From Patescibacteria group bacterium (GTDB taxonomy: Bacteria > Patescibacteriota > Microgenomatia > UBA10105 > UBA927), in NCBI GenBank assembly GCA_041753515.1, contig JBGSUE010000040.1, positions 8,290 through 72,289 of the forward strand: a DNA stretch of 64,000 nucleotides, given 5' to 3'. Made by a program: the position numbers and the translations under genes. Positions 1-61,150 of the stretch are shown one piece after another. The stretch's first letter is position 1. Each line of letters starts with the position of its first letter. Under the pieces are notes generated by a model. That model worked only from the letters and a program-made list of their open reading frames with translations, ran no database searches and had not been told where the DNA came from.

Positions 1-1667
1 AGAATATTTTCTTCCCTTTTTCCTTTTTCCTTTTTCCTTTCACCTAATGACGGGTATCTTAAAAAGTACCACGAACTATCTAAAAATGTATCAGAAACGT
101 CCGTCTCACGCCTGGCATCCCCACCGCAATGAGGACATTTTACTTCATAAAATTCCGTATGTTTTGCCAAAGGAGCAATACTGTCATCGCCAGGACGGTA
201 GTCTTCTATACGGGGCAGCAGTACCGGCAATTGACCATTGGGCACTGGAAACCAACCGGCCATATCAGAAAATGCAGATTCTTCTGAATATGTGATTCCT
301 TTTGTAAAACAATATTTACAAAATATCATCGGAATCGGTGGACCCCAATATCTTTGGCGCGAAATAAGCCAATCACGCAGGTGATAGGTAGAAACCCGTT
401 TCCCCCATCCCATCTTTTCCATATGGTCCATCATTGCGGCAGTTGCTTTATGAATATCCATACCATTCAGAAATCCTGAATTCATCATAATTCCTTCATC
501 TTCCTGAACATCGTCAATGTGTGTAATACACCCGTCATTATTGGCTGTTTTAACAACACGTATGACCGGAATATCAAATTCCCGGGCAAATTCAAAGTCC
601 CGTTTGTCATGACCGGGCACTCCTACAACCGCTCCGGAACCAAATCCCATAAGAACAAAGTCGGAAATGTACACAGGCATCAGTTTTCCATTTAGATCGT
701 TTTGACAATATAAACCAGTAAAGACTCCGGTCTTCTTTCTCCCTTCTTGTGCTCTTTCCTCAGATGTAATCTGTGATACACTTTTTATATATTGCTTGAT
801 TTTTTTACTCTGATCCTGATTTATCACTGTCAGAATCTGACTGATAATTTCATGCTCAGGAGATAGAGCAACAAAGGTGGCCCCAAAGTTTGTATCTGGT
901 CTTGTAGTAAAACATATAAGGTCAAATACATATTTATGATCTCTATTGACTACCTTATATGTAATATTGATTCCTTCCTTTTTCCCGATCCAGTTTGTTT
1001 GTGCGGTTTTCACAATGTGTGACCAATGAAGTGCGGGAATGTTTTCCAGTAATTTTTCCGCATATGCGGTAATTCGAAAAAACCATTGTTCTAAAGATCT
1101 TTTTGTTACATTATTTCCGCATCTCTCGCATTTTCCATCTATAACCTGCTCATCAGCCAAAACCGTTTTACATCCCGGACAAAAATTAACCTCCGCCCGT
1201 TTCCGGTATGCCAGGCCGTGTTTAAACATCTCCACAAACAACCATTGAGTGAAACGGTAGTAATCCGGATCATACGTTTCCAGGGTTTTGTCCCAATCAT
1301 ACATTGCTCCTATCTTGTGAAGCTGTGCATAAAATTTTTTCTGCGTAACCAGAGCATGGTCCATTGGATGGCGTCCTATTTTCAATGCGAAATTTTCGCT
1401 GTGAATGCCAAAACCGTCCAGTCCAATAGGCTCAAACACATTGAAGCCGCACATTCGCTTGTAGCGGCCGAAAATGTCCGCACCGGTAAATGCATACATG
1501 TTTCCCACATGCAGGCCTTCAGCGGATGGATACGGAAACATCATAAGATTGAAAAATTTCTTTTTCGTATCTTTGACATCCGTACTATTCTGTCGAATTG
1601 TGTTCCAACGGGACTTCCATTTGGTTTCGATATCTGTATGATTAAACATAGGTGTAGTATATACCAT
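1..1667 (-). CDS. leuS: leucyl-tRNA synthetase, N-terminal ~555 aa (gene runs off the window start; no in-window stop, hence absent from the ORF track)
   Basis: Minus-strand frame open from ATG at 1665-1667 (MVYTTPMFNHTDIETKWKSRW...) to position 1. It contains PYPSAEGLHVGN (HIGH-like), LeuRS-specific HLRDWLISRQRYWGPPIP, zinc-knuckle CPGCKT...CERCG and TFLDSSWYFLRYP. Confidence 0.9.
   Translation of the reverse strand, partial: MVYTTPMFNHTDIETKWKSRWNTIRQNSTDVKDTKKKFFNLMMFPYPSAEGLHVGNMYAFTGADIFGRYKRMCGFNVFEPIGLDGFGIHSENFALKIGRHPMDHALVTQKKFYAQLHKIGAMYDWDKTLETYDPDYYRFTQWLFVEMFKHGLAYRKRAEVNFCPGCKTVLADEQVIDGKCERCGNNVTKRSLEQWFFRITAYAEKLLENIPALHWSHIVKTAQTNWIGKKEGINITYKVVNRDHKYVFDLICFTTRPDTNFGATFVALSPEHEIISQILTVINQDQSKKIKQYIKSVSQITSEERAQEGRKKTGVFTGLYCQNDLNGKLMPVYISDFVLMGFGSGAVVGVPGHDKRDFEFAREFDIPVIRVVKTANNDGCITHIDDVQEDEGIMMNSGFLNGMDIHKATAAMMDHMEKMGWGKRVSTYHLRDWLISRQRYWGPPIPMIFCKYCFTKGITYSEESAFSDMAGWFPVPNGQLPVLLPRIEDYRPGDDSIAPLAKHTEFYEVKCPHCGGDARRETDVSDTFLDSSWYFLRYPSLGERKKEKGKREENI
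17..44. repeat. heptanucleotide tandem repeat (TTTTTCC)x3 plus TTTCACC inside the leuS CDS; encodes a K/E-rich insert ERKKEKGKREE on the minus strand
   Basis: Direct reading of 17-44: tttttcc tttttcc tttttcc tttcacc. Total length is in-frame. Confidence 0.7.
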
Positions 1668-3774
1668 TGTTATAAGGCATGACAAGAATATACATTTCTT
1701 GCCACTTTCGCCCTCTTTATCCCGAATAATAGAAATTATATACAGTTTTCACACGCATATACACGTATAATTTCACAGGATACGTATGTTCGTAAGTCAA
1801 TCAGTCACTCAAAGGTGAAAATATATATATGTCTTATATCAATAGCCTAAATCAATCTAGCACTCATTGGTTATAAGTGCCATTTAACATAATTCGGAGC
1901 TAAATTATCTTGCGGGAATAATTAAATTGAATAGAAATATATTCGTGAATATTTACACCTCGATATGATAAAATAATTATTATAAGTTTTATAATAAACA
2001 TATTATCGGTTATAAGCTAGTTATAGATCGTTATAACGGTATTATTATTTCCCGGATGGATAATTTATTGATCAAGTAGTACTGAGTAATATACTGCATA
2101 TATTATTAAATATTTATTTAAATATGATGTCCTATGGTATAGAAATCTGCGGCTAAATATGTACATGCGTTAAATCGTGAATAGTAATTTTTACACTCAG
2201 GCATATTCCTCATCCTATTCATACAGATATTGATTCATCAAATAGATATGCATCGCTTCAAATTTATTTGCATAGATATACTTTATCAAAGCTTATTCCG
2301 GCATCCTAAAATATTTTCTTACCATTAGTATTTCAGTATTATGATCATGTAGACAAAAAAATCTGCCATTTCCTCGTTTTCAATTTATTCCAACGTACCT
2401 GCTCATACCTTCCACTATTTTATTTTTGTACAATAGGCTCTTGAATATGTATTCACCAGAAGTCGAAGAAACTAGCGAAATGTTTTTGCACTAAATGGAA
2501 TACGGGAATACCGTAAGTATCAATGAACCAGTTCATGATGGTTACTTACCAGATTCACACTTTATGTTAAAAAATAATTACATCATTGATTAATGACAAA
2601 CTACAAATGCTCACTGCTCTCATGTCTGAATGTACCCGACTTTTAAACACGTACAATAAAAACATCACTTTTTTCTTTTGTCGTAAAATATTCAACTCTC
2701 CTCCACTTTACATTTTTAATAGTTATTGATACGTCGTAAAAATTTTTATGAAATTTACATTATACATATAAAAATTTAAAAATTCTCACTATTGCATAAT
2801 AAACCTATAATATATTCTTCTTTTTATAATTATCTTTCCGTCACTAGTCGTACAAAATATTTTGGTATACTCTGCTCTAAAGATACAAATCTAATCTCAT
2901 ATACGTCGTAAAATTTTATATCAAATAAACATACCGGTAATACATATTTATTAAATCGTCGTAAAATATATACATTATCTGTCGAACGGCCTCACGAACA
3001 GGATTACAAATTTTCAGGAGAAATATTTATTAATTAGCCAAACTCAACCGAATATAATAAAACGGGATACAGACATCCACCAATTATTTCATTATATTGA
3101 TTCTATATACACATCTCTATTATTACTTCAGCATTTTACACTTCAATATCAATATAGTACTAAATGATATTTAAAACATCTATATATTATTTAATATTCT
3201 TTTTTATATATTAATACGACTTAAATGGATTGTTCTTGCGTGAGCCCCATAACCGAATCTGCATATCTTTAAATCTTTCATTAGAATACAGAGAAATTCC
3301 GCATACCTTTCCATTTTCAGTCGGACTCCGGGTGTTTGAAAAACCTTTCACTGTCATATTCAACGCAATCCCCATTCTTTATCCGACGTGCGCGATTCAC
3401 GGCTACTATTGTGCTCTGTTCAGTTCACTATCTATGCCGGTTGAGGAATTTTTCATCCGTTATATGGCATTTCAAAGGCTTACGGAAATGAGAGTTTTTT
3501 TATTAACTTTAGACTGTCATGTCAGTATGAAATATGAAATACTTTGAGGCTAAATTAGCAATCTCACTCTCTCATCTGCTAAATATCAATAATATCATTA
3601 GAACAGGAAAATCGTGGTTTTTGAAGCTAAAATATACTATATACTCCTCACTTTCCCCGAGTCATATTCATTTTTCAAACAATAACTATCTTATAGGACT
3701 CACCAAACTGATGTCAATTTTTCACTTTTTCCGGATTTCTATATCTAAAGATATCAATGAAGGACTTAACTACA
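1668..3774. other. 2.1-kb AT-rich region with no credible ORFs, between the leuS start and the 3' end of the pilin cluster
   Basis: Base composition far more AT-rich than flanking CDS. Stops in all six frames. The only track ORFs (3230-3547, 3534-3887) are low-complexity. Confidence 0.6.
2678..2970 (+). repeat. five same-orientation direct repeats of core [T]ACGTCGTAAAAT (iteron-like), spaced about 52-116 bp
   Basis: Copies at about 2678-2690 (ttgtcgtaaaata), 2730-2742 (tacgtcgtaaaaa), 2846-2860 (tagtcgtacaaaata), 2902-2917 (tacgtcgtaaaatttt) and 2955-2970 (atcgtcgtaaaatata). Confidence 0.6.
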
Positions 3775-4290
3775 TCAGTCAGCACAGAGGCAGAAATTGC
3801 GGTTCGCAACCGTACATTCCGCAGCGCAATTTGCACTGCATTTGGATACACTCGATGATATGTCCGGATCACCTGGATTCTCCATGACGGTCGCTAAACA
3901 AAAATCATCACCGGATATCTTTTGAGTATACGTCCAGCCATCATCAACTCCCGGATCCATGTCCGGCCATTGTTTCATATATTGCGTATCACACCCGCCT
4001 CCGCCGGCTGCAAAATCGTAGTCCGTACACACAGAACCATCACACACTTGGTCCCCAGCCGCCCCGCACCCCTGAATACTTAATCCTGCTGTATTTGCTG
4101 GATATATTCCATAATCATTGTAATACAGCCGCAAGGCGGTTTTCATCTCCCCAAGTTCGGTCTTGCGCTTTACATCCCGCGCCCTCTGCCGTATTCCCAT
4201 AAAATTGGGAACAATTAGACCGATAATCGTGGCAATCACACCGATGACCACAAGTATCTCTATAAGCGTGAATGCTCTATGCTGTTTCAT
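3775..4290 (-). CDS. type IV pilin-like protein (prepilin N-terminal methylation domain; Cys-rich C-terminus)
   Basis: MKQHRAFTLIEILVVIGVIATIIG... has the class III signal peptide G/FTLIE. RK-x-ELGEM motif is shared with its neighbours. Confidence 0.8.
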   Translation of the reverse strand: MKQHRAFTLIEILVVIGVIATIIGLIVPNFMGIRQRARDVKRKTELGEMKTALRLYYNDYGIYPANTAGLSIQGCGAAGDQVCDGSVCTDYDFAAGGGGCDTQYMKQWPDMDPGVDDGWTYTQKISGDDFCLATVMENPGDPDISSSVSKCSANCAAECTVANRNFCLCAD

Positions 4291-4294
4291 ATAT

Positions 4295-4834
4295 TTAGTT
4301 TAACACTTTATTTGTACTCGTGACACCGAAATTACATTCTATCAACGTAGTCTTACCACACTTCAATAAACCGATCGGATCATTGTAATCGTCAGGATTT
4401 CCTGAACCATCATGAAGAGCATCCTGATCATCTAAATTTTCCAACCGTGCATATAGTTTAAAAAAAGTACCTGAAGCATCGCTCAGATAATAGTAAGTCT
4501 GCGTTGATTTCGGGTCTGACGGCAATTCCGCCATATATATGACCTCATTCGGACTCACCCCTTGCTTCATCATATCACCCCAATTGCATGTCACCTGTCC
4601 TGTATCTCCACAGGCATTCATTCTTCCATTTGTTGTCATTTTTGGAAAAGATCCAAAATCCTGATAATAAATCTCTATGGCTTTTGCCATTTGGGCAAGG
4701 TCGCTTTTGCGTTTGAGATCATTTCGCTTCATCATCGTTGCCCGGTAGCTGCCGATAGCACCCACGGCTAAAATAGCTAAAATTGCCATCACGACGATTA
4801 TTTCAATAAGCGTGAAGCCACGATTTTTATTCAT
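4295..4834 (-). CDS. type IV pilin-like protein
   Basis: MNKNRGFTLIEIIVVMAILAILAVG..., KRKSDLAQMAKAIEIYY. Confidence 0.8.
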   Translation of the reverse strand: MNKNRGFTLIEIIVVMAILAILAVGAIGSYRATMMKRNDLKRKSDLAQMAKAIEIYYQDFGSFPKMTTNGRMNACGDTGQVTCNWGDMMKQGVSPNEVIYMAELPSDPKSTQTYYYLSDASGTFFKLYARLENLDDQDALHDGSGNPDDYNDPIGLLKCGKTTLIECNFGVTSTNKVLN

Positions 4835-4844
4835 ATCATCTCTA

Positions 4845-5294
4845 TTATGGCACTAATGGTACACCACTCGTCAATCCGTAATTCACACCCGGCTCCAATC
4901 CACAGGCTGTTGCCGTACATCCCGCTTTTACTATATCAGGATCTGATGTCTGTTTAAGTGTTGCAAATATCCTATACCCGTCACACGATCCAATCTTTCG
5001 GTACAGATACTGTTGTTTGGTCTCCGGATCGCAGACAAATCTGTTCATGCCCTGATTTTCAAATGCAGTTGAACCGCAGATGGAAGGATCGTTGAGCGTG
5101 GCTTCATCGGGATAGCACCCGGTGTCATTGAAATACTGCTCCAGCATCACTTTCATCTTGGCAAGATCCTGCTTCCGGCGCCCGTCAAATCCTTTTTGAA
5201 GCTGTGCCATCCAGTTTGTGTATCCGGCTGCCAGTAGTAGCGCCATGATGGCTATCACAATCAGAAGTTCCATGAGGGTAAAGCCTCTTCTCAT
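4845..5294 (-). CDS. type IV pilin-like protein (start trimmed to MRRGFTLMELLIVIAI; the track ORF extends to 5372)
   Basis: The prepilin leader is normally 5-7 aa ending in G before FTLxE. RRKQDLAKMKVMLEQYF is paralogous to the two upstream pilins. Confidence 0.75.
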   Translation of the reverse strand: MRRGFTLMELLIVIAIMALLLAAGYTNWMAQLQKGFDGRRKQDLAKMKVMLEQYFNDTGCYPDEATLNDPSICGSTAFENQGMNRFVCDPETKQQYLYRKIGSCDGYRIFATLKQTSDPDIVKAGCTATACGLEPGVNYGLTSGVPLVP

Positions 5295-5313
5295 ATTTTC
5301 AGTATAATACAAC
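5295..5313. promoter_or_regulatory. 19-bp divergent intergenic region with overlapping -10 elements for two leaderless-type starts (TATAAT 5303-5308 on plus; TATACT from 5301-5306 on minus)
   Basis: Sequence is CAT(5292-94) attttcagTATAATacaac ATG(5314). Each -10 lies 5-6 nt from its start codon. Confidence 0.4.
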
Positions 5314-7383
5314 ATGATCCAGTTGTATATCTTTACAGAGAAAGCCCACGTAGGTATGATGGGGTCTATCATGACATCACGGATTGCTTTGGCAATACTC
5401 CTGTCTACAGTTGCAGTTTTTTATACCGGGTTCGGTGAGATATTCCAAACGCCGAAATTTTTTCTTCTGACTGGATCGACCCTCATACTCCTGTGTATTT
5501 TGGCCGTCAGGATAGTATTCGTCAACCGTATACCCATCCCGCGAATCGGCCTATGGACCGGATTTCTTGCTCTTGCCGTATCCTCGCTGATCACAACGGT
5601 ATTTTCCGGTTCAAACATCAGCGACCAGCTCAACGATCCTGTTGCCAGCCCATGGGTATTTTTCAGTCTTGCCCTTCTCTCGCATTTCTTACAGACTGCT
5701 TCTACCCGGGGAGCCACAACACTGCGATATACATATATCATCCTCGTCTCTATCCTTTCGATACTTTCCATCTATATGTACTTTGGTCTGGGAGAGATCA
5801 TGTTTCCGGCATCAGATATCCTGAAAGACAAACTATTTACTCCTGTTGGCAATCCGTATGTGCTTTTTGCACTGCTCGTCATGGCTATACCGGCGATTCT
5901 TTTTTCCATACAAAACGCGTACAGGCATACCCGGGATATTGATGTAGGACTCTATACCATAGCCGGGCTCTTGGTTCTCACCGGTACCGCTTTTTTAGGT
6001 ATCCAGCTTGCCCAAACAGCTTCAACATCACTCCTGCCCCTTTCTTCCGCCTGGTCAATACTCATGGAATCATATAAGACGTTTAAAAATGCGCTCGTCG
6101 GTGTGGGTTTGGACAACTATATCAGCGCATTCAATGCCGGCCGTCCGGCACAGCTCAACACAACACCCATCTGGAATCTCCGGTTCACTTCAGGCCCAAG
6201 CTTATTTTTCCATATTGGGGCAACTCAAGGATTGGTGGGGATCTTTGCATTTTCCGTATTTCTTATAAACATCGTGAAGTCAGTGAAAAATAACCCGGCA
6301 TGGTATAGGTTCAGTACGATTTTTCTTGCCGTGCTGTCCCTCTTTATCATCCAGCCTCATCTTGCCCTGTGGACGGGTCTCATATTCATCCTTCTTCCAC
6401 TCACGAAAAATTCCAACTCAAACCACGATGCATATCTCATCATTCATCAGCGCTGGGTTGCATGGGTTACTGCATCCGCGACTATTCTTGGCTGTGCCAT
6501 CCTTTTCATCTTCTGGTGGCGTTCTCTTATGGGAGAAATTGTATTCGGCCAGTCTTTGTCTGCCGCCTCCAATAATGACGGTAAAAAAACGTATGAAAAG
6601 CAAATTCAGGCAATCGGGTATAAACCGGACAAAACAGCATTCCATATCGCCTATTCCCAAACCAATATATCACTAGCAAATTCCATTGCTTCACAGGCCG
6701 AAAACAACCTGAATACGCTCACTGAAGAAGACAAAACTCTTTTCTCTCAACTTATCCAGCAGGCCGTCAGGGAAGCGAAAACTGCCACAACTCTCTCGCC
6801 AAGAAACGTCCTGGCATGGGAAAATCAGGCTAAAACGTATCAGGCGATTGCAGGTGTCGTCACCGGCTCCGACCAATGGGCAATCGCATCGTATCAGGAA
6901 GCCATCAAGCTGGATCCGACGAATCCGCTTCTTCGCATGGACCTTTCAGGTCTCTTTATGCGTTTGGGTAAATTTGACGAAGCGATCCAGGAGCTCAAAA
7001 CTGCCTCGTATCTCAAAAACGATCTTGCCAATATCCACTACAACCTCGCCTATGCTTACGGACAAACAAAGGCGTATTATAACCAGGCTGTAGAGCTCAA
7101 ACGGACAGCAGCGCTTATCGATCCCTCAAGCGAGGATGCAAAAAAAGTAGAAGATACACTGAAAGAGGTTGTAATCGAATTAAATGAACAGGAAAAAACC
7201 TCTTTTTCTGAAATTGTGACCGGTATTCCGGCAATAGACCAGATCCCGCTCTCAACTCCAAAACCCGAACCGGTTTTCGAGATCGAACCGAAGCTGGATA
7301 TTCTCCCCGAAGAGGCAACAACATCTTCCTTACCGCACCCTTCCCCAGAGAGCACCGGCGGAGATGAAACAGTAGAGAACTAA
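5314..7383 (+). CDS. O-antigen ligase (Wzy_C/WaaL/PglL-PilO) family polytopic membrane protein with C-terminal TPR repeats; candidate pilin O-oligosaccharyltransferase
   Basis: About 12 TM segments. Wzy_C-like block GVGLDNYISAF...SLFFHIGATQGLVGIFAFSVFL. C-terminal TPR-like AYYNQAVELKRTAALIDP. Divergent from the pilin genes. The start could instead be MMGS at 5356. Confidence 0.65.
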   Translation: MIQLYIFTEKAHVGMMGSIMTSRIALAILLSTVAVFYTGFGEIFQTPKFFLLTGSTLILLCILAVRIVFVNRIPIPRIGLWTGFLALAVSSLITTVFSGSNISDQLNDPVASPWVFFSLALLSHFLQTASTRGATTLRYTYIILVSILSILSIYMYFGLGEIMFPASDILKDKLFTPVGNPYVLFALLVMAIPAILFSIQNAYRHTRDIDVGLYTIAGLLVLTGTAFLGIQLAQTASTSLLPLSSAWSILMESYKTFKNALVGVGLDNYISAFNAGRPAQLNTTPIWNLRFTSGPSLFFHIGATQGLVGIFAFSVFLINIVKSVKNNPAWYRFSTIFLAVLSLFIIQPHLALWTGLIFILLPLTKNSNSNHDAYLIIHQRWVAWVTASATILGCAILFIFWWRSLMGEIVFGQSLSAASNNDGKKTYEKQIQAIGYKPDKTAFHIAYSQTNISLANSIASQAENNLNTLTEEDKTLFSQLIQQAVREAKTATTLSPRNVLAWENQAKTYQAIAGVVTGSDQWAIASYQEAIKLDPTNPLLRMDLSGLFMRLGKFDEAIQELKTASYLKNDLANIHYNLAYAYGQTKAYYNQAVELKRTAALIDPSSEDAKKVEDTLKEVVIELNEQEKTSFSEIVTGIPAIDQIPLSTPKPEPVFEIEPKLDILPEEATTSSLPHPSPESTGGDETVEN

Positions 7384-8346
7384 ACCGGTGAAAAACCCCT
7401 TCACGGCAAACGGAAGCCCCTTTTCCTGATACATGAATACGAGAAATTTCCGGATGAGAAATATGTGAAACAGCAAAATGAAACCAAGAATCGATGCGAT
7501 CAGTCCGGGAATCATACCAAACGGCATCCAGTATGCAAGTGCACTCACGAGTATGAGAACTCCAAACAATCCTACCACACCCACCCCGGAGAGTGCGGTG
7601 ATGGCTTCCTGAAGCGTAGTTGCCACAGGGTCAAAGCGCTTCCGGTGTGAATACAGTTTGGTCCAGTAGTATGCCCGCAGGAAATATTTTTTGGCAATCG
7701 GCCAGAAATCCTCAAATTCATGATGCACCCGGACACTCGGCGCGAATATGATGGCATATCTTCTGGCGATCCGGTAGGTTAGCTCGATATCCTCAACGAG
7801 CGCCCCCGGATACTTTTCATCAAACCCACCAAGACGCAAGAATACGGATTTTTTAATCGACGCAATGCGTGTTGAAAACAGAAAGTAGTAACCGGATTTA
7901 TCCCGTTCGTTGATCCAGTAACTCCAATCCCGCAGAGCTTTGAAATTCGGAAAGAATGCGTCTGTTTTCTGCTCTTTTACCCATACACCGGTTACTGCCA
8001 CGACGTCGGGGTCGTCCTGATAGATATTGGCAAGATTGGCAAGCGTATCGGGAAACAGCACGACATCTGAATCTAAAAATACAAGAAACTTGCCTCTGGC
8101 TTCTTTGGCACCCCTGTTCCTGGCCGCCGCCGGTCCTTTGTTTTGTTTTACGTTTATTATTGTTAAAATTTTATTCTTTTTTTGAGATTTGGGATTTGGG
8201 ATTTGGAACTTTACCCTACTTCCATCATCAACCACAATCACTTCATATGCCGGTGCCTTTCTTGAGGCATAAATTGAGTCCAGAAGTACCCCAATCGTCG
8301 CCTCGCTATTGTGGTATGGAATGATGATGGAGAGATACGGTTTCAT
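7330..8346 (-). CDS. family 2 glycosyltransferase with low-complexity insert and C-terminal TM helices
   Basis: IIIPYHNSE...VVDDGS...NKGPAAARNRGA...FLDSDV. Insert VKFQIPNPKSQKKNKILTIINVKQ sits between the DDGS and NKG blocks. Confidence 0.8.
   Translation of the reverse strand: MKPYLSIIIPYHNSEATIGVLLDSIYASRKAPAYEVIVVDDGSRVKFQIPNPKSQKKNKILTIINVKQNKGPAAARNRGAKEARGKFLVFLDSDVVLFPDTLANLANIYQDDPDVVAVTGVWVKEQKTDAFFPNFKALRDWSYWINERDKSGYYFLFSTRIASIKKSVFLRLGGFDEKYPGALVEDIELTYRIARRYAIIFAPSVRVHHEFEDFWPIAKKYFLRAYYWTKLYSHRKRFDPVATTLQEAITALSGVGVVGLFGVLILVSALAYWMPFGMIPGLIASILGFILLFHIFLIRKFLVFMYQEKGLPFAVKGFFTGLVLYCFISAGALWGRVR
8186..8206. repeat. perfect heptanucleotide tandem repeat (GATTTGG)x3 inside the GT2 CDS; minus strand CCAAATC x3 encodes PNPKSQ
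   Basis: Direct reading: gatttgg gatttgg gatttgg. 21 bp, so in-frame. Confidence 0.75.
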
Positions 8347-9495
8347 TTATTGAAGTTTTTTCAGTATCCGGACAGCGTGGGTATTGATATATTCCAACTG
8401 CAATTCTGTCATCCCTGCAAATATAGGCAAACGCACAATTGTGGCTGCAACATCATCTGTCATGGGCAGCTTCCTTTTAGCTCCACCCAGCTTTTTTCCC
8501 ATCGGAGACGAATGAAGAGGTACATAATGCATAGAAACCTCTATGCCTTTTTCTCTCATACCGGCAATAAAATTTTTACATCTATCCGCTGAGTCGAATT
8601 TTAAAGCATAGATATGCCAATTCGGTTCTATCATTTCAGGCGGTACACATGGAAGTTGAACGAATTCAAACTGTAAAATTTCTTGTGTATACATATCTGC
8701 TATAGACTTTCTTAACAGATTTATTTCTTTAATCTGATCAATTTGTGTGTTCACAAGGGTTGCAAGCAGATCGGTGAGCATATAGCTCGATCCTTCCCCT
8801 ACCCACCGGTATATAGACACTTTTCCGGCAAGAAATGCTGCCCTGTCTGTGCCGATTGCACGCAGTATTTCAAGCTTGTCAAAAAGATCGTCATTATTTG
8901 TCACAAGCGCACCACCCTCTCCCGCTGCTACATTTTTCGTGCCATGAAAGCTGAACGCTCCCGCATTCCCTAAAGTCCCAAGATGCCTCTTCTTACCCCG
9001 ATATCTCATATATGAACCAATGCAGTGGGCTGCATCCTCTACAAGCCACAGATTGTGCGCTTTGGCAAGCTGTATAAGGTCTAAAAATCCTTTTCCTGCC
9101 ATACCGGCGTAGTGGACCGTTATGATGCCGACGGTTTTTTTTGATATCACCCTCTCTACATCTCTCGGGTCAAGGCAATATGTCGCGGGATCAATATCCG
9201 CAAATACCGGCCTGGCGCCTTTTATCATTGCAGCAGTAGCTGTGGATGCGAGCGTAAAACTCGGTACAATCACCTCATCACCGGCTTTTGCACCCAACGC
9301 CCAGACCGCCATGTCCATCGCACTTGTTGCCGACGTTACCGGCAATGCATGTGTAGCGCCAGTGAGTAATGATAGTTTGTTGCGCAGAATTTGACTTTCT
9401 GGCCCGTCCGCCACACCACTACCTTCCCGCATTGCGCGGATTATCGCCTTCTCTTCTTTCTGTCCCCAATATGGCTTGTGCAAAGGAATATGCAT
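8347..9495 (-). CDS. DegT/DnrJ/EryC1/StrS-family PLP-dependent sugar aminotransferase (ArnB/WecE-like)
   Basis: 382 aa. DAAHCIGS...FSFHGTKNVAAGEGG is the PLP-Lys region. Abuts the GT2 stop. Confidence 0.85.
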   Translation of the reverse strand: MHIPLHKPYWGQKEEKAIIRAMREGSGVADGPESQILRNKLSLLTGATHALPVTSATSAMDMAVWALGAKAGDEVIVPSFTLASTATAAMIKGARPVFADIDPATYCLDPRDVERVISKKTVGIITVHYAGMAGKGFLDLIQLAKAHNLWLVEDAAHCIGSYMRYRGKKRHLGTLGNAGAFSFHGTKNVAAGEGGALVTNNDDLFDKLEILRAIGTDRAAFLAGKVSIYRWVGEGSSYMLTDLLATLVNTQIDQIKEINLLRKSIADMYTQEILQFEFVQLPCVPPEMIEPNWHIYALKFDSADRCKNFIAGMREKGIEVSMHYVPLHSSPMGKKLGGAKRKLPMTDDVAATIVRLPIFAGMTELQLEYINTHAVRILKKLQ

Positions 9496-9498
9496 ATC

Positions 9499-9590
9499 AA
9501 TTATGAATTAATAATTACGAATGACGAATTTAATAAGGTAAATATTGCACATATCAATTCATAATTCATAATTCGTAATTCATAATTTCT
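9499..9590. repeat. inverted pair of (AATTCRT)n heptamer arrays flanking a 22-bp spacer, between the acetyltransferase stop and the aminotransferase start
   Basis: Left arm 9499-9533 is in reverse orientation. Right arm 9556-9590 reads aattcat aattcat aattcgt aattcat aatttct and overlaps the last codons (KKL) and the stop of the upstream gene. Confidence 0.7.
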
Positions 9591-10257: not shown

Positions 10258-10289
10258 CAATTCGTAATTCGTAATTCATAATTGTTAAT
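10258..10289. repeat. (AATTCRT)n heptamer array: aattcgt aattcgt aattcat aattgtt
   Basis: Direct reading. Overlaps the stop of the GT2 at 10285. Confidence 0.7.
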
Positions 10290-11037
10290 TTTCTCTTACT
10301 TCACCCTGTTTTGTAATCAACCGGCGCCACAGACCAAAAAGACTTTGCATATAATCAATCGTATCAGGTATCAGATTCACGGTCGAGCGTTTATCGATCC
10401 TGCGCAGGAATAAAACCGGCACTTCCCTGATGCGAAGATTCGCAGCTCTGGCAAACACCATAATCTCCGTATCCCAAAACCAGTGTGCATGCCGGGTTTT
10501 CGTCAGAACCGGCAAGATTTTTTTCCTGTTGAAGAATTTATAACCGCTTTCCGTATCCATTTTATTGGTTCCCACCATCTTGTCTGAAAGATACCGGTAT
10601 CCGACGCTCGCAATTTCGCGGATGATCGAATGGATATTCGTACGGTATACCCGTGTTCCGATCACTACATCTGCGTCATCATTCATGATGATACGGACAA
10701 TCTGTGGGATATAAACAGGCGATACTTCAAGATCGATATCGATATATCCTGCAACTGTTGCGCGCGAAGCCCTGATACCATCCATGACTGTTCTTCCCCG
10801 CCCCATGTTTTTTTTGTGGAAAAGTGCTTTCCAGTTTTTATGGATTTTGAGCTCATGCCTGATAAGTTCAGGAGTGGAATCAGTTGAGGCATCGTCCACA
10901 AATATGATCTGCCACCTGAATCCTACATCGGATAAAACGCTTTCGATCGTCCGGACACTCTGGACAAAATGTCCTTCCTCGTGATATGTGGGAAGAATGA
11001 GGGAAAAATCGAACCGCGTGGACCGTTTTTTCTTCAT
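10285..11037 (-). CDS. GT2 polyprenyl-phosphate sugar synthase (DPM1/ArnC/GtrB-like)
   Basis: FSLILPTYHEE...FVDDASTDST...IDIDLEV...TRVYR. Sits between a GT-C gene and the aminotransferase/acetyltransferase pair, an Arn-like arrangement. Confidence 0.8.
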   Translation of the reverse strand: MKKKRSTRFDFSLILPTYHEEGHFVQSVRTIESVLSDVGFRWQIIFVDDASTDSTPELIRHELKIHKNWKALFHKKNMGRGRTVMDGIRASRATVAGYIDIDLEVSPVYIPQIVRIIMNDDADVVIGTRVYRTNIHSIIREIASVGYRYLSDKMVGTNKMDTESGYKFFNRKKILPVLTKTRHAHWFWDTEIMVFARAANLRIREVPVLFLRRIDKRSTVNLIPDTIDYMQSLFGLWRRLITKQGEVREN

Positions 11038-11096
11038 ATAATAGCTTTCTATGGTACTCTAAAAACCTATAATATGCAATTTCTTTATCATTGCCT

Positions 11097-11178
11097 GTCA
11101 TTCTGAGCCCCCGAGCACTAGAGGCGAAGAATCTCATCATGTCCAATAAATAGATTCTTCACTTCGTTCAGAATGACT
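11097..11178. repeat. inverted-repeat element E1 (type A: TGTCATTCTGAGC...GAAGAATCT / AGATTCTTCACTTCGTTCAGAATGAC)
   Basis: Near-perfect palindrome about 60 bp upstream of the GT2 start at 11037. Confidence 0.7.
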
Positions 11179-16821: not shown

Positions 16822-16883
16822 TGTCATTCTGAACAAAGTGAAGAATCTATTCACTAGATCCTTCGCTCACGCTCAGGATGACA
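16822..16883. repeat. inverted-repeat element E2 (TGTCATTCTGAACAAAGTGAAGAATCT ... AGATCCTTCGCTCACGCTCAGGATGACA)
   Basis: 8 bp upstream of the aminotransferase start at 16814. Overlaps the 3' end of the GT2 pseudogene. Confidence 0.7.
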
Positions 16884-17619: not shown

Positions 17620-17704
17620 TGTCATTCTGATCCGCCAGTTGGCGGAGAAGAATCTAGTTTAAAAAATTAGATCCTTCACTCGCCTTCGGCGGTTCAGGAT
17701 GACA
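17620..17704. repeat. inverted-repeat element E3, 2 bp upstream of the ATG at 17707 and 34 bp upstream of the divergent start at 17586
   Basis: tgtcattctgatccgccagttggcggagaagaatct ... agatccttcactcgccttcggcggttcaggatgaca. Both inner arms are palindromic. Confidence 0.7.
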
Positions 17705-21804: not shown

Positions 21805-21839
21805 AATTCATAATTCGTAATTCATAATTTGTAATTGAA
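21805..21839. repeat. (AATTCRT)n heptamer array: aattcat aattcgt aattcat aatttgt aattgaa
   Basis: Lies between the epimerase stop and the SGNH start at 21773. Confidence 0.7.
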
Positions 21840-27716: not shown

Positions 27717-29363
27717 ATGGTCATGAAAAAATATTTTGAACCCGTCTTTGTCGCCCTCTTCATCATCTTCATGACGGCGGTCAACCTGTGGCACGTGATC
27801 TACCACGCACAATCACGGCCGCCAAATACGGTATATGTGGGCATCTCCCACCACTACGAAGACTACTTCTACTACCTCTCCCAACTCACCCAGGGAGCGC
27901 AAAAATCGTGGGAAGTGAAAAATCTCTACACATCCGAACCCATCCCGGCGACTCCTCTCTGGTGGGTAAATATTATACTCGGAAAAGTGTCAGCACTCCT
28001 ACATGTCCCTGTATTTACCGTATATACAGCATCGCTTTTTGCCGCGACGCCACTACTTTTGGCAACGCTGTACCTGGGCTCGCGTATGCTTTTTCCAAAA
28101 AATACTAACCTTCGTCTGGGGACTCTCCTCATAACTGTTCTTGCAACAGCAGGTTATAGATATATTGACGGTCGGATTGATCCAATTGTGTATTTCTATA
28201 ACTATACGAGCTCTCTCAACAGGCTTGGCGGTGTCACGCATCTCATGCTCCAAAACATCCTGTCTCTTCTGATCATTCTTTATGGCTCCGCGATCATTGA
28301 ATCCGACAAAAAAATAAGTAGAAATACCCTTATTGTGAGCATAAGCGCATTCCTTCTGGCTTTCATCAACCCCGTATATGTTGTCCTTGATGCTGTGGCA
28401 ATCTCGCTTGTTGCGCTAACCCGTATTCGCAGAAAACTTCTCACGAGTGCCCTTATTATCGGCATTCCACTGCTGATTCCATATATCCTCATGCAACGCA
28501 CATTTGATATCCCCTTCTACCAGTATTTCCGCTGGTGGGAGTCATCGGTCCTTCGCGCCCCCACATACAACTTTTGGCACTCGTACGGCATCCTCATCTA
28601 TCTTCTCCCTTTGGGGGTTATCCCATTTTTAAAAAAAGGCGGGGCTCTGCGGTGGACCGGACTTGTCTGGGCAGTTCTCCCAGTCATCATGTATTGGTCC
28701 CCCATCCCCGGCATTCTCCACATCCCGGTCTTCCGTCTCACCCAGCCGCCACAGTACCTAATCCTCGGGGCCATTGCAGCGGAGGGCTTATGGATCCTTT
28801 GTCATCCCGAACTTGTTTCGGGATCCCGTTTCATTAACTGGATGCTGAAACGAGTTCAGCATGACGGGAAAAAAATATACAATCATAATAATTCTAAAAT
28901 AATTCTATTTTGGTTATTAACTACTCTATTTCTCATTAATCAATACCCGATGCTCTACGAGGAAGTGCGGGCGCGGCGCGACAACTACACCCTTATCTCA
29001 TGGCTCAACCATATGGATAAAAACCTGTACGAAGGACTTATGACTTTTTCTACCATGCCGCATAATCAGATAGCTCTTGCATTCAACAATCTGGAACTCA
29101 TCGTGCCGGCAATTTCGGGACACACAGTTTACCAGGCCCACCGGTCGCTGACCCTTGAGTATCCGCGCAAAATCGGTGAGGCAGCAACATTTTTCACTAT
29201 GCAGCTTACCCCGTCCGATGCGCTGTCATTTCTTAAAACCAACACCATCGGCTACATCCTCTGGAGAAAATCAGACGGCGACAGACGCGAATTTGAGGCA
29301 TACTATCCATTCCTCACTAAAACCTATGAAAATTCTACTCTCATCATCTATACTGTGCAGTAA
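27717..29363 (+). CDS. GT-C-like paralog family member 3
   Basis: PPNTVYVGISHHYEDYFYYLSQLTQGAQKSWEVKNLYTSEP. C-terminus YYPFLTKTYENSTLIIYTVQ. Confidence 0.55.
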   Translation: MVMKKYFEPVFVALFIIFMTAVNLWHVIYHAQSRPPNTVYVGISHHYEDYFYYLSQLTQGAQKSWEVKNLYTSEPIPATPLWWVNIILGKVSALLHVPVFTVYTASLFAATPLLLATLYLGSRMLFPKNTNLRLGTLLITVLATAGYRYIDGRIDPIVYFYNYTSSLNRLGGVTHLMLQNILSLLIILYGSAIIESDKKISRNTLIVSISAFLLAFINPVYVVLDAVAISLVALTRIRRKLLTSALIIGIPLLIPYILMQRTFDIPFYQYFRWWESSVLRAPTYNFWHSYGILIYLLPLGVIPFLKKGGALRWTGLVWAVLPVIMYWSPIPGILHIPVFRLTQPPQYLILGAIAAEGLWILCHPELVSGSRFINWMLKRVQHDGKKIYNHNNSKIILFWLLTTLFLINQYPMLYEEVRARRDNYTLISWLNHMDKNLYEGLMTFSTMPHNQIALAFNNLELIVPAISGHTVYQAHRSLTLEYPRKIGEAATFFTMQLTPSDALSFLKTNTIGYILWRKSDGDRREFEAYYPFLTKTYENSTLIIYTVQ

Positions 29364-36288: not shown

Positions 36289-36326
36289 AAATTATGAATT
36301 ATTAATGATGAATTACGAATGAAGAT
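36289..36326. repeat. heptamer (AATTCRT-type) array directly upstream of the epimerase start at 36288, in reverse orientation on the plus strand
   Basis: ttcataaattatgaattattaatgatgaattacgaatgaag. Confidence 0.6.
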
Positions 36327-38904: not shown

Positions 38905-38921
38905 AATATTTTGTCATGCTG

Positions 38922-38973
38922 AGTGAAACGAAGCATCTCTTCACGAGATTCTTCACTACGTTCAGAATGACTC
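38922..38973. repeat. inverted-repeat element E4 (short variant), 18 bp upstream of the start at 38904
   Basis: tgtcatgctgagtgaaacgaagcatctcttcacgagattcttcactacgttcagaatgact. Confidence 0.6.
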
Positions 38974-38993: not shown

Positions 38994-39767
38994 CTATCCT
39001 TGCCTCTTTATATTCAGATTCATTAAATACCTTATAGTGTCCGATGAGCTGGTTTTCAATAATTGATATGCCGTGTCCGAAACCGTGTTGGCAATAATAA
39101 CGCTAGGTGCGTCTTTTTCAAACGGTATACGATGATATGTTTTATTAATCTCTTCAATATTGTGTCCATCAATTGTATGCACGGAAAATCCGAATGACTG
39201 CCATTTTTTTGCAAATGGTTCCAGAGGCGTAATCTCAGACGATGCGCCAAAGCACTGCCATTTGTTGTAATCCACGATGACGGTCAGATTGTCCAATTTC
39301 ATGCGTGATGCAAAAATAGCGGCTTCCCACACACTCCCCTCCCCGCATTCCCCATCGCTGATTAAGACAAAAACGTGCGGAGGTTTTTTATTAATTTTTT
39401 TATATCCCAGTGCTATACCAGAAGCAAATGCCAAGCCATGTCCGAGACTCCCTGATGTCATTTCAATACCGGGATCTTTCATTTCAGGATGCTCGCACAA
39501 TCCACCGGTATCAGCTCCGAACGAATCAATGAGTTTTTTTCCCATGATTTTTTTGTGATACAGCACAGAGTAGAGCGCTGCTGCCGCATGGCCTTTGGAC
39601 AGGATAAACCGGTCTTTTTTCACATCCAGTCTTCCGGCATACAAAACTGCCACAAGATCGGATATCGATAATGCCGATCCGATGTGCCCTGTATGGGCAT
39701 GATAAGAAATATCAAGAGAAGTCAACGCAACCTCATGACAAAATTTCTGTATATTTTTTTTCATCAT
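38994..39767 (-). CDS. transketolase, N-terminal (TPP-binding) subunit; 3' end likely frameshifted at a T-run near 39085-39090
   Basis: SKGHAAAALY...GSLGHGL...ISDGECGEGSVWEA. After ...VIIANTV the conserved ending FGHGISIIENQLIGHYK... continues in the -1 frame. Confidence 0.75.
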   Translation of the reverse strand: MMKKNIQKFCHEVALTSLDISYHAHTGHIGSALSISDLVAVLYAGRLDVKKDRFILSKGHAAAALYSVLYHKKIMGKKLIDSFGADTGGLCEHPEMKDPGIEMTSGSLGHGLAFASGIALGYKKINKKPPHVFVLISDGECGEGSVWEAAIFASRMKLDNLTVIVDYNKWQCFGASSEITPLEPFAKKWQSFGFSVHTIDGHNIEEINKTYHRIPFEKDAPSVIIANTVSDTAYQLLKTSSSDTIRYLMNLNIKRQG

Positions 39768-39802
39768 AATTCGTAATTCCTAATTCATAATTCGTAATTC
39801 TT
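39768..39802. repeat. (AATTCRT)n heptamer array: aattcgt aattcct aattcat aattcgt aattctt
   Basis: Abuts the tktN start and overlaps the last codons (ELRIMN) and the stop of the epimerase. Confidence 0.7.
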
Positions 39803-49901: not shown

Positions 49902-49977
49902 TGTCATTCTGAACGAAGTGAAGAATCTCGTAGTAGATTAGATCCTTCATCCGCCTGTTGGCGGATTCAGGATGACA
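49902..49977. repeat. inverted-repeat element E5, 17 bp upstream of the start at 49885
   Basis: tgtcattctgaacgaagtgaagaatctcgtagtagattagatccttcatccgcctgttggcggattcaggatgaca. Confidence 0.7.
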
Positions 49978-51740: not shown

Positions 51741-51821
51741 TGTCATTCTGAGCATTCTGATGCGAAGAATCTAGTTTAATCATAATTACTAGATCCTTCG
51801 GCCTTTAGCCTCAGGATGACA
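51741..51821. repeat. inverted-repeat element E6, 17 bp upstream of the start at 51724
   Basis: tgtcattctgagcattctgatgcgaagaatctagtttaatcataattactagatccttcggcctttagcctcaggatgaca. Confidence 0.7.
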
Positions 51822-61064: not shown

Positions 61065-61150
61065 TGTCATCCTGAGCGAGAGTGAAGGATCTCGTTTTTG
61101 GGGAGAAAGAGGGTTTCCCAACCCAACCCGTGAGCGACCGTCCACTCCCC
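61065..61150. repeat. half-copy of the type A element (tgtcatcctgagcgagagtgaaggatct) fused to a second hairpin (tttttggggag...ctccccaaaaa)
   Basis: Direct reading. Lies upstream of the ATG at 61182. Confidence 0.55.

Follow-up and report, generated by a model that had tools for sequence, protein, structure and literature searches.

Five short direct repeats, candidate protein-binding sites, in an AT-rich spacer between leuS and pilin-like genes of a candidate phyla radiation bacterium

Several kinds of cis-acting repeat arrays have been described in AT-rich or non-coding DNA. The iterons of P1 oriR, RK2 oriV, pSC101 and the lambda ori are 17–22 bp long, lie nearly contiguously at a phasing of ~22 bp beside a rep gene and usually beside DnaA boxes, and are known to bind protein. 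About five short repeats, tens of bp apart over ~250–300 bp of AT-rich DNA, make up the arms of lambda attP (P1, P2 and P'1–P'3), the TnsB sites of Tn7 and the L1–L3 sites of Mu, while oriC and datA hold a cluster of about five sites in non-coding DNA, and CRISPR arrays consist of repeats of at least ~23 nt that are conserved throughout, separated by regular spacers and usually accompanied by cas genes. Here we describe an array of five short repeats in the same orientation, with the core GTCGTAAAAT, which lies in an AT-rich non-coding spacer (positions 1650–3774; 2,125 nt) between the start of leuS and the stop codon that ends the last of three pilin-like genes. The spacer is part of a 64-kb stretch of contig JBGSUE010000040.1 (hereafter the window) from a bacterium of the candidate phyla radiation (CPR). 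The array resembles the known cis-acting repeat arrays, but the defining features of iteron origins, oriC, attP, CRISPR arrays and known RNA families are not found in it.

Our preferred reading, to which we give a probability of roughly 40%, is that the copies are clustered binding sites of a DNA-binding protein whose gene lies elsewhere; this protein would probably be dimeric and cooperative within 53-bp pairs of copies, and the array would have a regulatory, insulating or architectural role. The spacer around it is best read as fast-evolving DNA at a synteny breakpoint. CPR bacteria have small genomes with dense coding, which makes a gene-free 2-kb segment that has been retained with a motif array a candidate cis-element; the regulation and chromosome biology of these organisms are almost unknown. 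If the motif proves to be the site of a regulator or an architectural protein, it would offer a rare entry point for studying DNA-protein recognition in a lineage that has not been cultured, and help to explain the long AT-rich gap that is found upstream of leuS across the clade.

A non-random motif cluster in gene-free DNA

The spacer has a GC content of 29.9%, compared with 44.3% in the rest of the window, and is the sole long gene-free AT-rich segment in 64 kb of otherwise densely coded DNA, which bears out the description of low GC and missing genes in a first-pass annotation of this sequence. The array itself is enclosed by the lowest-GC 300-nt stretch of the whole window (2671–2980; GC 22.7%), while the lowest 300-nt GC value outside the spacer is 0.32. 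Duplex stability over 100 bp is lowest in the segments starting at 2736 and 3116, the first of which overlaps the array.

Four copies of the 9-mer GTCGTAAAA start at positions 2680, 2733, 2905 and 2958 of the + strand, reading exactly GTCGTAAAAT at 2680, 2905 and 2958 and GTCGTAAAAA at 2733. Copy 1 (GTCGTAAAAT, 2680–2689) has the 5' flank ttttGTCG and lacks the left half of a dyad that is complete in two other copies, namely copy 2 (ATACGTCGTAAAAA, 2729–2742) and copy 4 (ATACGTCGTAAAAT, 2901–2914). These two have ATACGTCGTAAAA in common, which holds the dyad TACGnCGTA; the perfect dyad TACGTCGTA lies at 2730–2738 and 2902–2910, followed by an A5T5 tract in copy 2 and an A4T4 tract in copy 4. 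Copy 3 (GTCGTAcAAAAT, 2847–2858) is degenerate and carries a 1-nt insertion (an extra C), and copy 5 (TCGTCGTAAAAT, 2956–2967) has a 5' flank similar to that of copy 2. Together, the four strong copies and the degenerate one define a consensus element of ~10–13 bp, (A)TACGTCGTAAAAT, with an A-tract or T-tract behind every core. The + strand carries all five copies, at start-to-start spacings of 53, 114, 58 and 53 nt. The first-pass annotation had reported five same-orientation copies, each embedding a TAAAAT; the number and orientation agree with our analysis apart from the imperfect copy, whereas TAAAAT is exact in only three of the five.

Chance does not account for this cluster, which is non-random: GTCGTAAAA was observed four times where 0.01 occurrences are expected, and none of 1,000 dinucleotide shuffles gave four copies of any 9-mer with at least three G/C. 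No exact copy of the motif, and no inverted partner copy, occurs outside the array on either strand of the 64-kb window, and the exact 4-1-4 dyad TACGnCGTA is present twice in the window, both times within the array. The region 2651–3000 contains 13 CpGs, compared with 4.6 expected from base composition, and in the aligned copies one or two CpGs can be read in the core of every copy. Mean pairwise identity is 0.74 in the core and 0.31–0.37 in the flanks, where 0.29 is expected from composition. As conservation is limited to the core and flank identity is at background, a short site under selection appears more likely than a recent duplication of ~55-nt units. A CRISPR-like or decayed minisatellite origin was rejected on the same flank identity; as for a CRISPR array in particular, the conserved part spans only 10–13 nt, and no Cas-family hit was obtained when the window proteins were scanned with Pfam, a scan in which many proteins had no hit at all.

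A local excess of a motif, with conservation confined to the site, is the pattern expected of an array of transcription-factor or architectural-protein sites. We therefore consider the copies to be candidate binding sites of a sequence-specific DNA-binding protein encoded elsewhere in the genome. Because of the dyad TACGnCGTA, this protein would probably bind as a dimer. A spacing of 53 nt corresponds to ~5.05 helical turns, which would put the two members of a pair in helical phase, and its occurrence in two pairs suggests that binding may be cooperative within each. The resulting nucleoprotein array, on DNA that is easily bent and easily melted, might then regulate or insulate transcription across the spacer. 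The position of the array in the lowest-GC segment of the window also supports this reading, as do the negative results for coding, RNA and origin alternatives described below. Moreover, the host has arrays of GAATTAY heptads upstream of genes, and repeat-array cis-elements thus belong to its repertoire. Of the two forms in which the first-pass annotation had considered a regulatory array, regulator-binding sites are thus our best reading, given the core-only conservation, the dyad in two copies and the paired 53-nt spacing, while tandem sigma-70 promoters fared poorly (see below).

Several observations weigh against a binding-site array. First, it has no evident target gene: it lies downstream (3') of the pilin genes and ~1.0–1.3 kb upstream of leuS, and because of this position and a promoter-like site that leuS has of its own, a direct role for the pilins or leuS is not evident, so the earlier suggestion of a landing pad serving these neighbours gained no clear support. 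Second, the phase of one 53-bp pair differs from that of the other by about half a helical turn, and the full dyad is present in two of the five copies only. Third, no candidate for the binding protein was found nearby, since no DNA-binding or regulatory Pfam domain was detected among the scanned window proteins. Finally, with regard to conservation, none of the AT-rich gaps of relatives contained an array of three or more copies, and the databases searched held no relative closer than 69% identity in leuS or 61% in the pilins.

Signals of other functions in the spacer

The spacer is genuine non-coding DNA. Its open reading frames (ORFs) are no longer than expected from block shuffles across five stop-codon sets (including the standard code, and TGA, TAG or TAA as sense), and a conserved protein-coding gene in an alternative code, which the first-pass annotation had named as a refuting outcome, was looked for and not found. 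Open frames of at least 45 codons had no Pfam or PHROG match, and the longest ORF, of 105 aa, had 0 homologues among 1.84 billion representative proteins in a full HMMER search. A search for leaderless small genes found no ATG-started ORF of at least 15 aa after any -10-like box in the spacer, and neither tblastn with all window proteins nor tblastx against 69 related loci detected a gene relic or a paralogue. Both a hidden protein-coding gene and a pseudogene relic were rejected on these grounds.

A structured RNA was likewise not supported. Rfam models gave nothing at gathering thresholds over the spacer and no T-box, with two chance snoRNA hits only (E > 3, in a search to E ≤ 10), ARAGORN found no tRNA gene in the window, and sliding fold z-scores never fell below -2.5 and were positive over the array. 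A riboswitch, including a leuS T-box, was thus not supported, as no Rfam family matched and folds were no more stable than those of shuffled sequence. An unstructured RNA is a different matter, as the five copies might act as a single-stranded protein-binding motif within an unannotated transcript, i.e., a sponge or regulatory RNA, which could be a long minus-strand 3' untranslated region of the pilin operon, reading 5'-AUUUUACGAC-3', or a + strand RNA. We consider this unlikely. All five copies are on one strand, which would suit such an RNA but has a probability of 1 in 16 by chance. No terminator-like site follows the pilin stop until a weak hairpin at 2515–2501 (2501–2515 on the minus strand), the first one on that strand downstream of the pilins, which lies just past the array and ~165 nt beyond copy 1. 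Predicted folding of the array is also unusually weak (z = +1.5 on the minus strand, or +1.46 for the putative 590-nt minus-strand RNA, and up to +2.2 on the plus strand), which would keep the motifs accessible. On the other hand, there is no Rfam family and no conserved structure, no convincing promoter was found, and the terminator-like sites are weak and near chance numbers (4 in the spacer, compared with 1.3 ± 1.3 expected, which is weak evidence).

The TAAAAT in the motif could alternatively be the -10 box of tandem sigma-70-type promoters firing rightward, a possibility that we regard as improbable. The same hexamer is the -10 box of two apparently leaderless genes of the window, starting at 27717 and 44275, and the single orientation and AT-rich surroundings of the copies fit promoters as well. 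However, none of the five copies passed a promoter consensus scan (which required a match at 9 or more of 12 positions), and the spacer shows no enrichment of promoter-like sites, with 18 found and 16.6 expected. By inspection, the -35 positions match in at most three of six bases and no TGn is present, which is poor compared with the real promoters of the host, which often have TTGnnn at -35 (16–18 nt) or a TGn extension. Furthermore, the -10-like boxes are not followed by ORFs, as described above, and the conserved GTCG lies outside the normal contacts of sigma-70. A promoter for an extracytoplasmic function sigma factor, suggested by the CGTC/CGTA core, was also considered and rejected, as inspection revealed no consistent AAC-type -35 element 16–17 nt upstream.

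In favour of a chromosomal replication origin or terminus, the spacer is long AT-rich non-coding DNA with repeated sites and a minimum of duplex stability, and the cluster of five sites in non-coding DNA recalls oriC and datA. Still, we hold this reading to be very improbable. What distinguishes the array from oriC and datA is a motif other than the DnaA box, a GC skew with no inflection and a neighbourhood that is not that of dnaA. No DnaA box (TTATCCACA, with at most one mismatch) occurs in 1650–3774, consistent with the single weak DnaA-like site of the first-pass annotation, and the window's 24 such matches, a chance-level number, all fall outside the spacer. GC skew is negative in leuS (1–1650) and over 3.8–64 kb on both gene orientations, with no inflection, although the left side covers only 1.6 kb and makes this a limited test. 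Neither dnaA nor dnaN was found among the scanned window proteins, and as to a terminus, only an XerD-arm-like half-site is present (1882–1892, minus strand), without a partner arm. This half-site, TTATGTTAAAT, which we take to be identical to the XerD-binding arm of E. coli dif, lies beside a hairpin at 1858–1882 and ~210–240 nt upstream of leuS; it has no matching XerC arm and is probably a coincidence in AT-rich DNA.

Iteron origins share with the array several direct repeats of the same orientation in or beside very AT-rich, easily melted DNA, and an adjacent AT-rich unwinding segment is present here as in those origins. In contrast to iterons, the array has a core of 10–13 bp, spacings of 53–114 bp and flanks at background identity, it has no DnaA box, and its context is chromosomal; there is also no adjacent rep gene, with no spacer ORF beyond chance and no Rep-family Pfam hit among the scanned proteins. 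The proposal of the first-pass annotation that this is a replication origin or plasmid-derived iteron region was therefore not supported, given the missing DnaA box and skew inflection, the absence of dnaA, rep, par and integrase genes among the scanned proteins, the lack of phage or plasmid similarity and a spacing unlike the ~22 nt of iterons.

More broadly, the array might be the vestige of a mobile replicon or integrative element whose genes have been lost, whether an iteron-type origin, a partition site, integrase arm-type sites or a multi-site transposon end. In addition to the direct repeats in the least stable DNA, five sites over ~290 bp are reminiscent of lambda attP, with its five arm-type sites, and of Tn7 ends, with their spaced TnsB sites, and the array lies at the edge of a variable surface-structure island. 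We nevertheless find such a vestige rather unlikely. Unlike attP or transposon ends, the array has no core or crossover site and no second end marked by inverted copies. An attP-type site needs a recombinase gene and a core, and often a tRNA; the window has no tRNA gene, and neither a recombinase or transposase nor rep, par or integrase genes were among the scanned proteins, in which no prophage or transposon genes were found over the 64 kb. No decayed coding relic was detected by tblastn, tblastx or Pfam/PHROG comparisons, blastn revealed no similarity to phage or plasmid records, and the copy spacing is unlike that of classical iterons. Viral contigs with paired copies of the 9-mer proved to be unrelated tandem or coding repeats that contain it by chance.

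The leuS gap and the pilin tail in relatives

Relatives with 58–69% leuS identity also have an ORF-free gap upstream of leuS, of 0.6–1.15 kb and with a GC content of 0.28–0.37 in loci of GC 0.45–0.50, whereas in more distant taxa this gap is usually 30–450 nt. The long AT-rich gap was found in Gottesmanbacteria-like loci (L014/L029, L031, L033, L034, L036, L037, L198 and L199). It thus has the same place relative to leuS as the spacer in the window, with similarly low GC and no ORFs, but it is shorter, it is bounded on the far side by a divergent giant gene, and it has no detectable sequence in common with the window and no array; blastn and nhmmer gave no significant similarity between the window and the gaps of relatives, including two conserved blocks, A and B. 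The comparison of the leuS–pilin interval that the first-pass annotation had suggested thus recovered a recurring gap, but neither the sequence nor the repeats of the spacer. That annotation had also considered a decayed horizontally acquired segment. No relic of a gene or mobile element was found, and the long AT-rich leuS gap of the closest relatives makes it less likely that the whole stretch was acquired recently.

On the other side of the spacer, the gene block Hexapep–DegT–GT2–TPR–three pilins is kept in other metagenomic contigs, but the sequel to the third pilin differs every time: a convergent gene comes after 44 nt in one case and after 469 nt in another, and elsewhere the gap is ~300–550 nt. 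In the closest pilin relative (61% identity, a contig of JGI 3300071358), at least 1,451 nt without a called gene extend to the contig end. Because this sequel differs in each relative, we place the spacer at a synteny breakpoint, where the AT-rich leuS gap typical of the clade has plausibly become joined to the tail of the pilin block.

These comparisons bear most directly on a neutral explanation, in which the spacer is leftover DNA at a rearrangement junction that has drifted to its mutational AT-equilibrium, and the copies are functionless remnants of old local duplications. Such an explanation is somewhat unlikely in our view. It agrees with the junction after the pilin block and with neighbouring genes that differ in every relative examined, as well as with a spacer that has no similarity to anything in the collections searched and no structure or coding signal; old duplications would also be compatible with the 32 nt that copies 2 and 4 have in common at 84% identity and with the 23-nt stretch common to copies 2 and 5. 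Yet the CpG-containing 9-mer is 100% identical in four copies whose flanks are at background, and decay should not spare a GC-rich core alone. In addition, given the dense coding elsewhere, one would not expect useless DNA of 2 kb to be kept, and the long AT-rich leuS gap recurs in relatives with only 58–69% leuS identity.

A bolder interpretation is that the AT-rich leuS gap is a positionally conserved cis-element of Gottesmanbacteria-like CPR, with fast sequence turnover and always with lineage-specific protein-binding arrays, of which the GTCGTAAAAT array would be the version of this lineage. The gap could then be a centromere-like or nucleoid-organising site, a DnaA-independent secondary origin, or a decoy locus that titrates a global regulator. 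We consider this quite improbable.

Two further observations concern the gaps of relatives. The giant divergent neighbours of leuS in relatives were found at L029 1–3180(-), L033 1–2547(-), L034 375–3971(-), L040 838–5322(-), L199 1–8840(-, >4,037 aa) and L198 ~1–4923. They have a high GC content (~0.6), and most of their products begin with MerR/HTH_17 or repeated phage-integrase SAM-like domains and continue into hundreds of collagen Gly-X-Y repeats, while that of L040 has a SAM-like-looking N-terminus and then a large non-collagen region. The combination of DNA-binding-type domains with very long collagen repeats is unusual. This neighbour gene is not in the window, and tblastn with the N-termini of the relatives found no relic of it there. 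Secondly, an alignment of five relatives (A3) revealed a block of ~60–100 nt upstream of leuS with 78% mean column identity, TCGCAT..TTTTTAGGCTTATAGC..TGCGGGATTTAGATGATCAGAACGATATA, at L033 3125–3225, L034 4547–4647, L048 1983–2083, L037 9742–9842 and L032 25–125. The block contains no ORF and has no Rfam hit, it is undetectable upstream of leuS in the window, and it may be a conserved promoter plus operator, or a leader.

Flanking genes and other intergenic signals

The leuS gene (2–1649, minus strand) runs off the window, which includes its N-terminal 549 codons; translation from the start at 1649 proceeds without interruption. Its product is 100% identical to an 849-aa NCBI protein encoded on a contig of 88,083 nt, and the next-best relatives in the protein search reach 69% identity at most. 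The best leuS matches in genome and metagenome scans and in the protein search are metagenome-assembled genomes of Candidatus Gottesmanbacteria and Microgenomates, and with next-best matches of only 69% identity, the host is by this sequence evidence a CPR bacterium without close sequenced relatives. Right of the spacer, all on the minus strand, are three genes with a prepilin N-terminal methylation motif (Pfam N_methyl), at 3775–4290 (with its stop at 3775), 4295–4834 and 4845–5372. The window beyond (at least 60 kb) is a pilin and surface-glycan gene block which, according to Pfam, encodes GT2 glycosyltransferases, DegT aminotransferases, epimerases, methyltransferases, and PMT_2 and YfhO-type membrane proteins; genes for replication or recombination were, like those for regulation and DNA binding, not detected among the scanned proteins, many of which have no Pfam hit. 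Two independent Logan contigs (run SRR28170473) are 100% identical to window positions 2766–4127 and 4118–9585, and since they reproduce the window exactly, the join between the AT-rich DNA and the pilins is not an assembly artefact or chimera. The contig ends lie at 2766, within the repeat array, and at 4118–4127, within the last pilin gene; strain variation, repeats or low coverage could cause them.

The promoter-like site of leuS mentioned above, TTGTCA-18-TATACT (1656–1685, minus strand), ends 6 nt short of the ATG at 1649, implying that the mRNA has no leader, or almost none. The weak hairpin or terminator-like site beside the XerD-arm-like sequence (1858–1882, minus strand) reads TGGCACT-N11-AGTGCTA followed by a T-rich tail and lies ~210–230 nt upstream of leuS. 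A weaker repeated word in this part of the spacer, GTTATAAG, starts at 1669, 1870 and 2009 of the + strand (span 1669–2016; 0.06 occurrences expected) and reads CTTATAAC on the leuS strand. Related words, GCTTATA(A/G), recur in the leuS-upstream gaps of relatives, and the word may be a lineage-typical -10-like element.

Across the window, most genes have a TATAAT- or TAAAAT-like box 5–10 nt before the ATG and no Shine-Dalgarno sequence (e.g., the starts at 5314(+), 13349(+), 27717(+), 30782(+), 44275(+), 61760(+), 1649(-), 10116(-), 23771(-) and 44194(-)), and this arrangement suggests that mRNAs in the host are predominantly leaderless. Tandem GAATTAY heptads (e.g., GAATTACGAATTATGAATT) at 9556–9588, 10259–10291, 21805–21837, 39761–39800 and 36296–36314 lie directly upstream of, or overlap, the starts of several glycan-biosynthesis genes and look like operator arrays of a heptad-binding regulator. 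They share with the GTCGTAAAAT array a short intergenic motif in one orientation, which in the latter has a partly dyad-symmetric core; in contrast to the heptads immediately upstream of start codons, the GTCGTAAAAT copies are widely spaced and without an adjacent target gene. Finally, a family of palindromic intergenic elements of ~60–85 nt, GTCATYCTGA...GAAGGATCT...AGATTCTTC...TCAGAATGACA, is absent from the AT-rich spacer and present elsewhere in the window in six complete copies (11096–11178, 16822–16883, 17620–17704, 38912–38972, 49902–49977 and 51741–51821) and one partial copy (61065–61093), each immediately 5' of a start codon.

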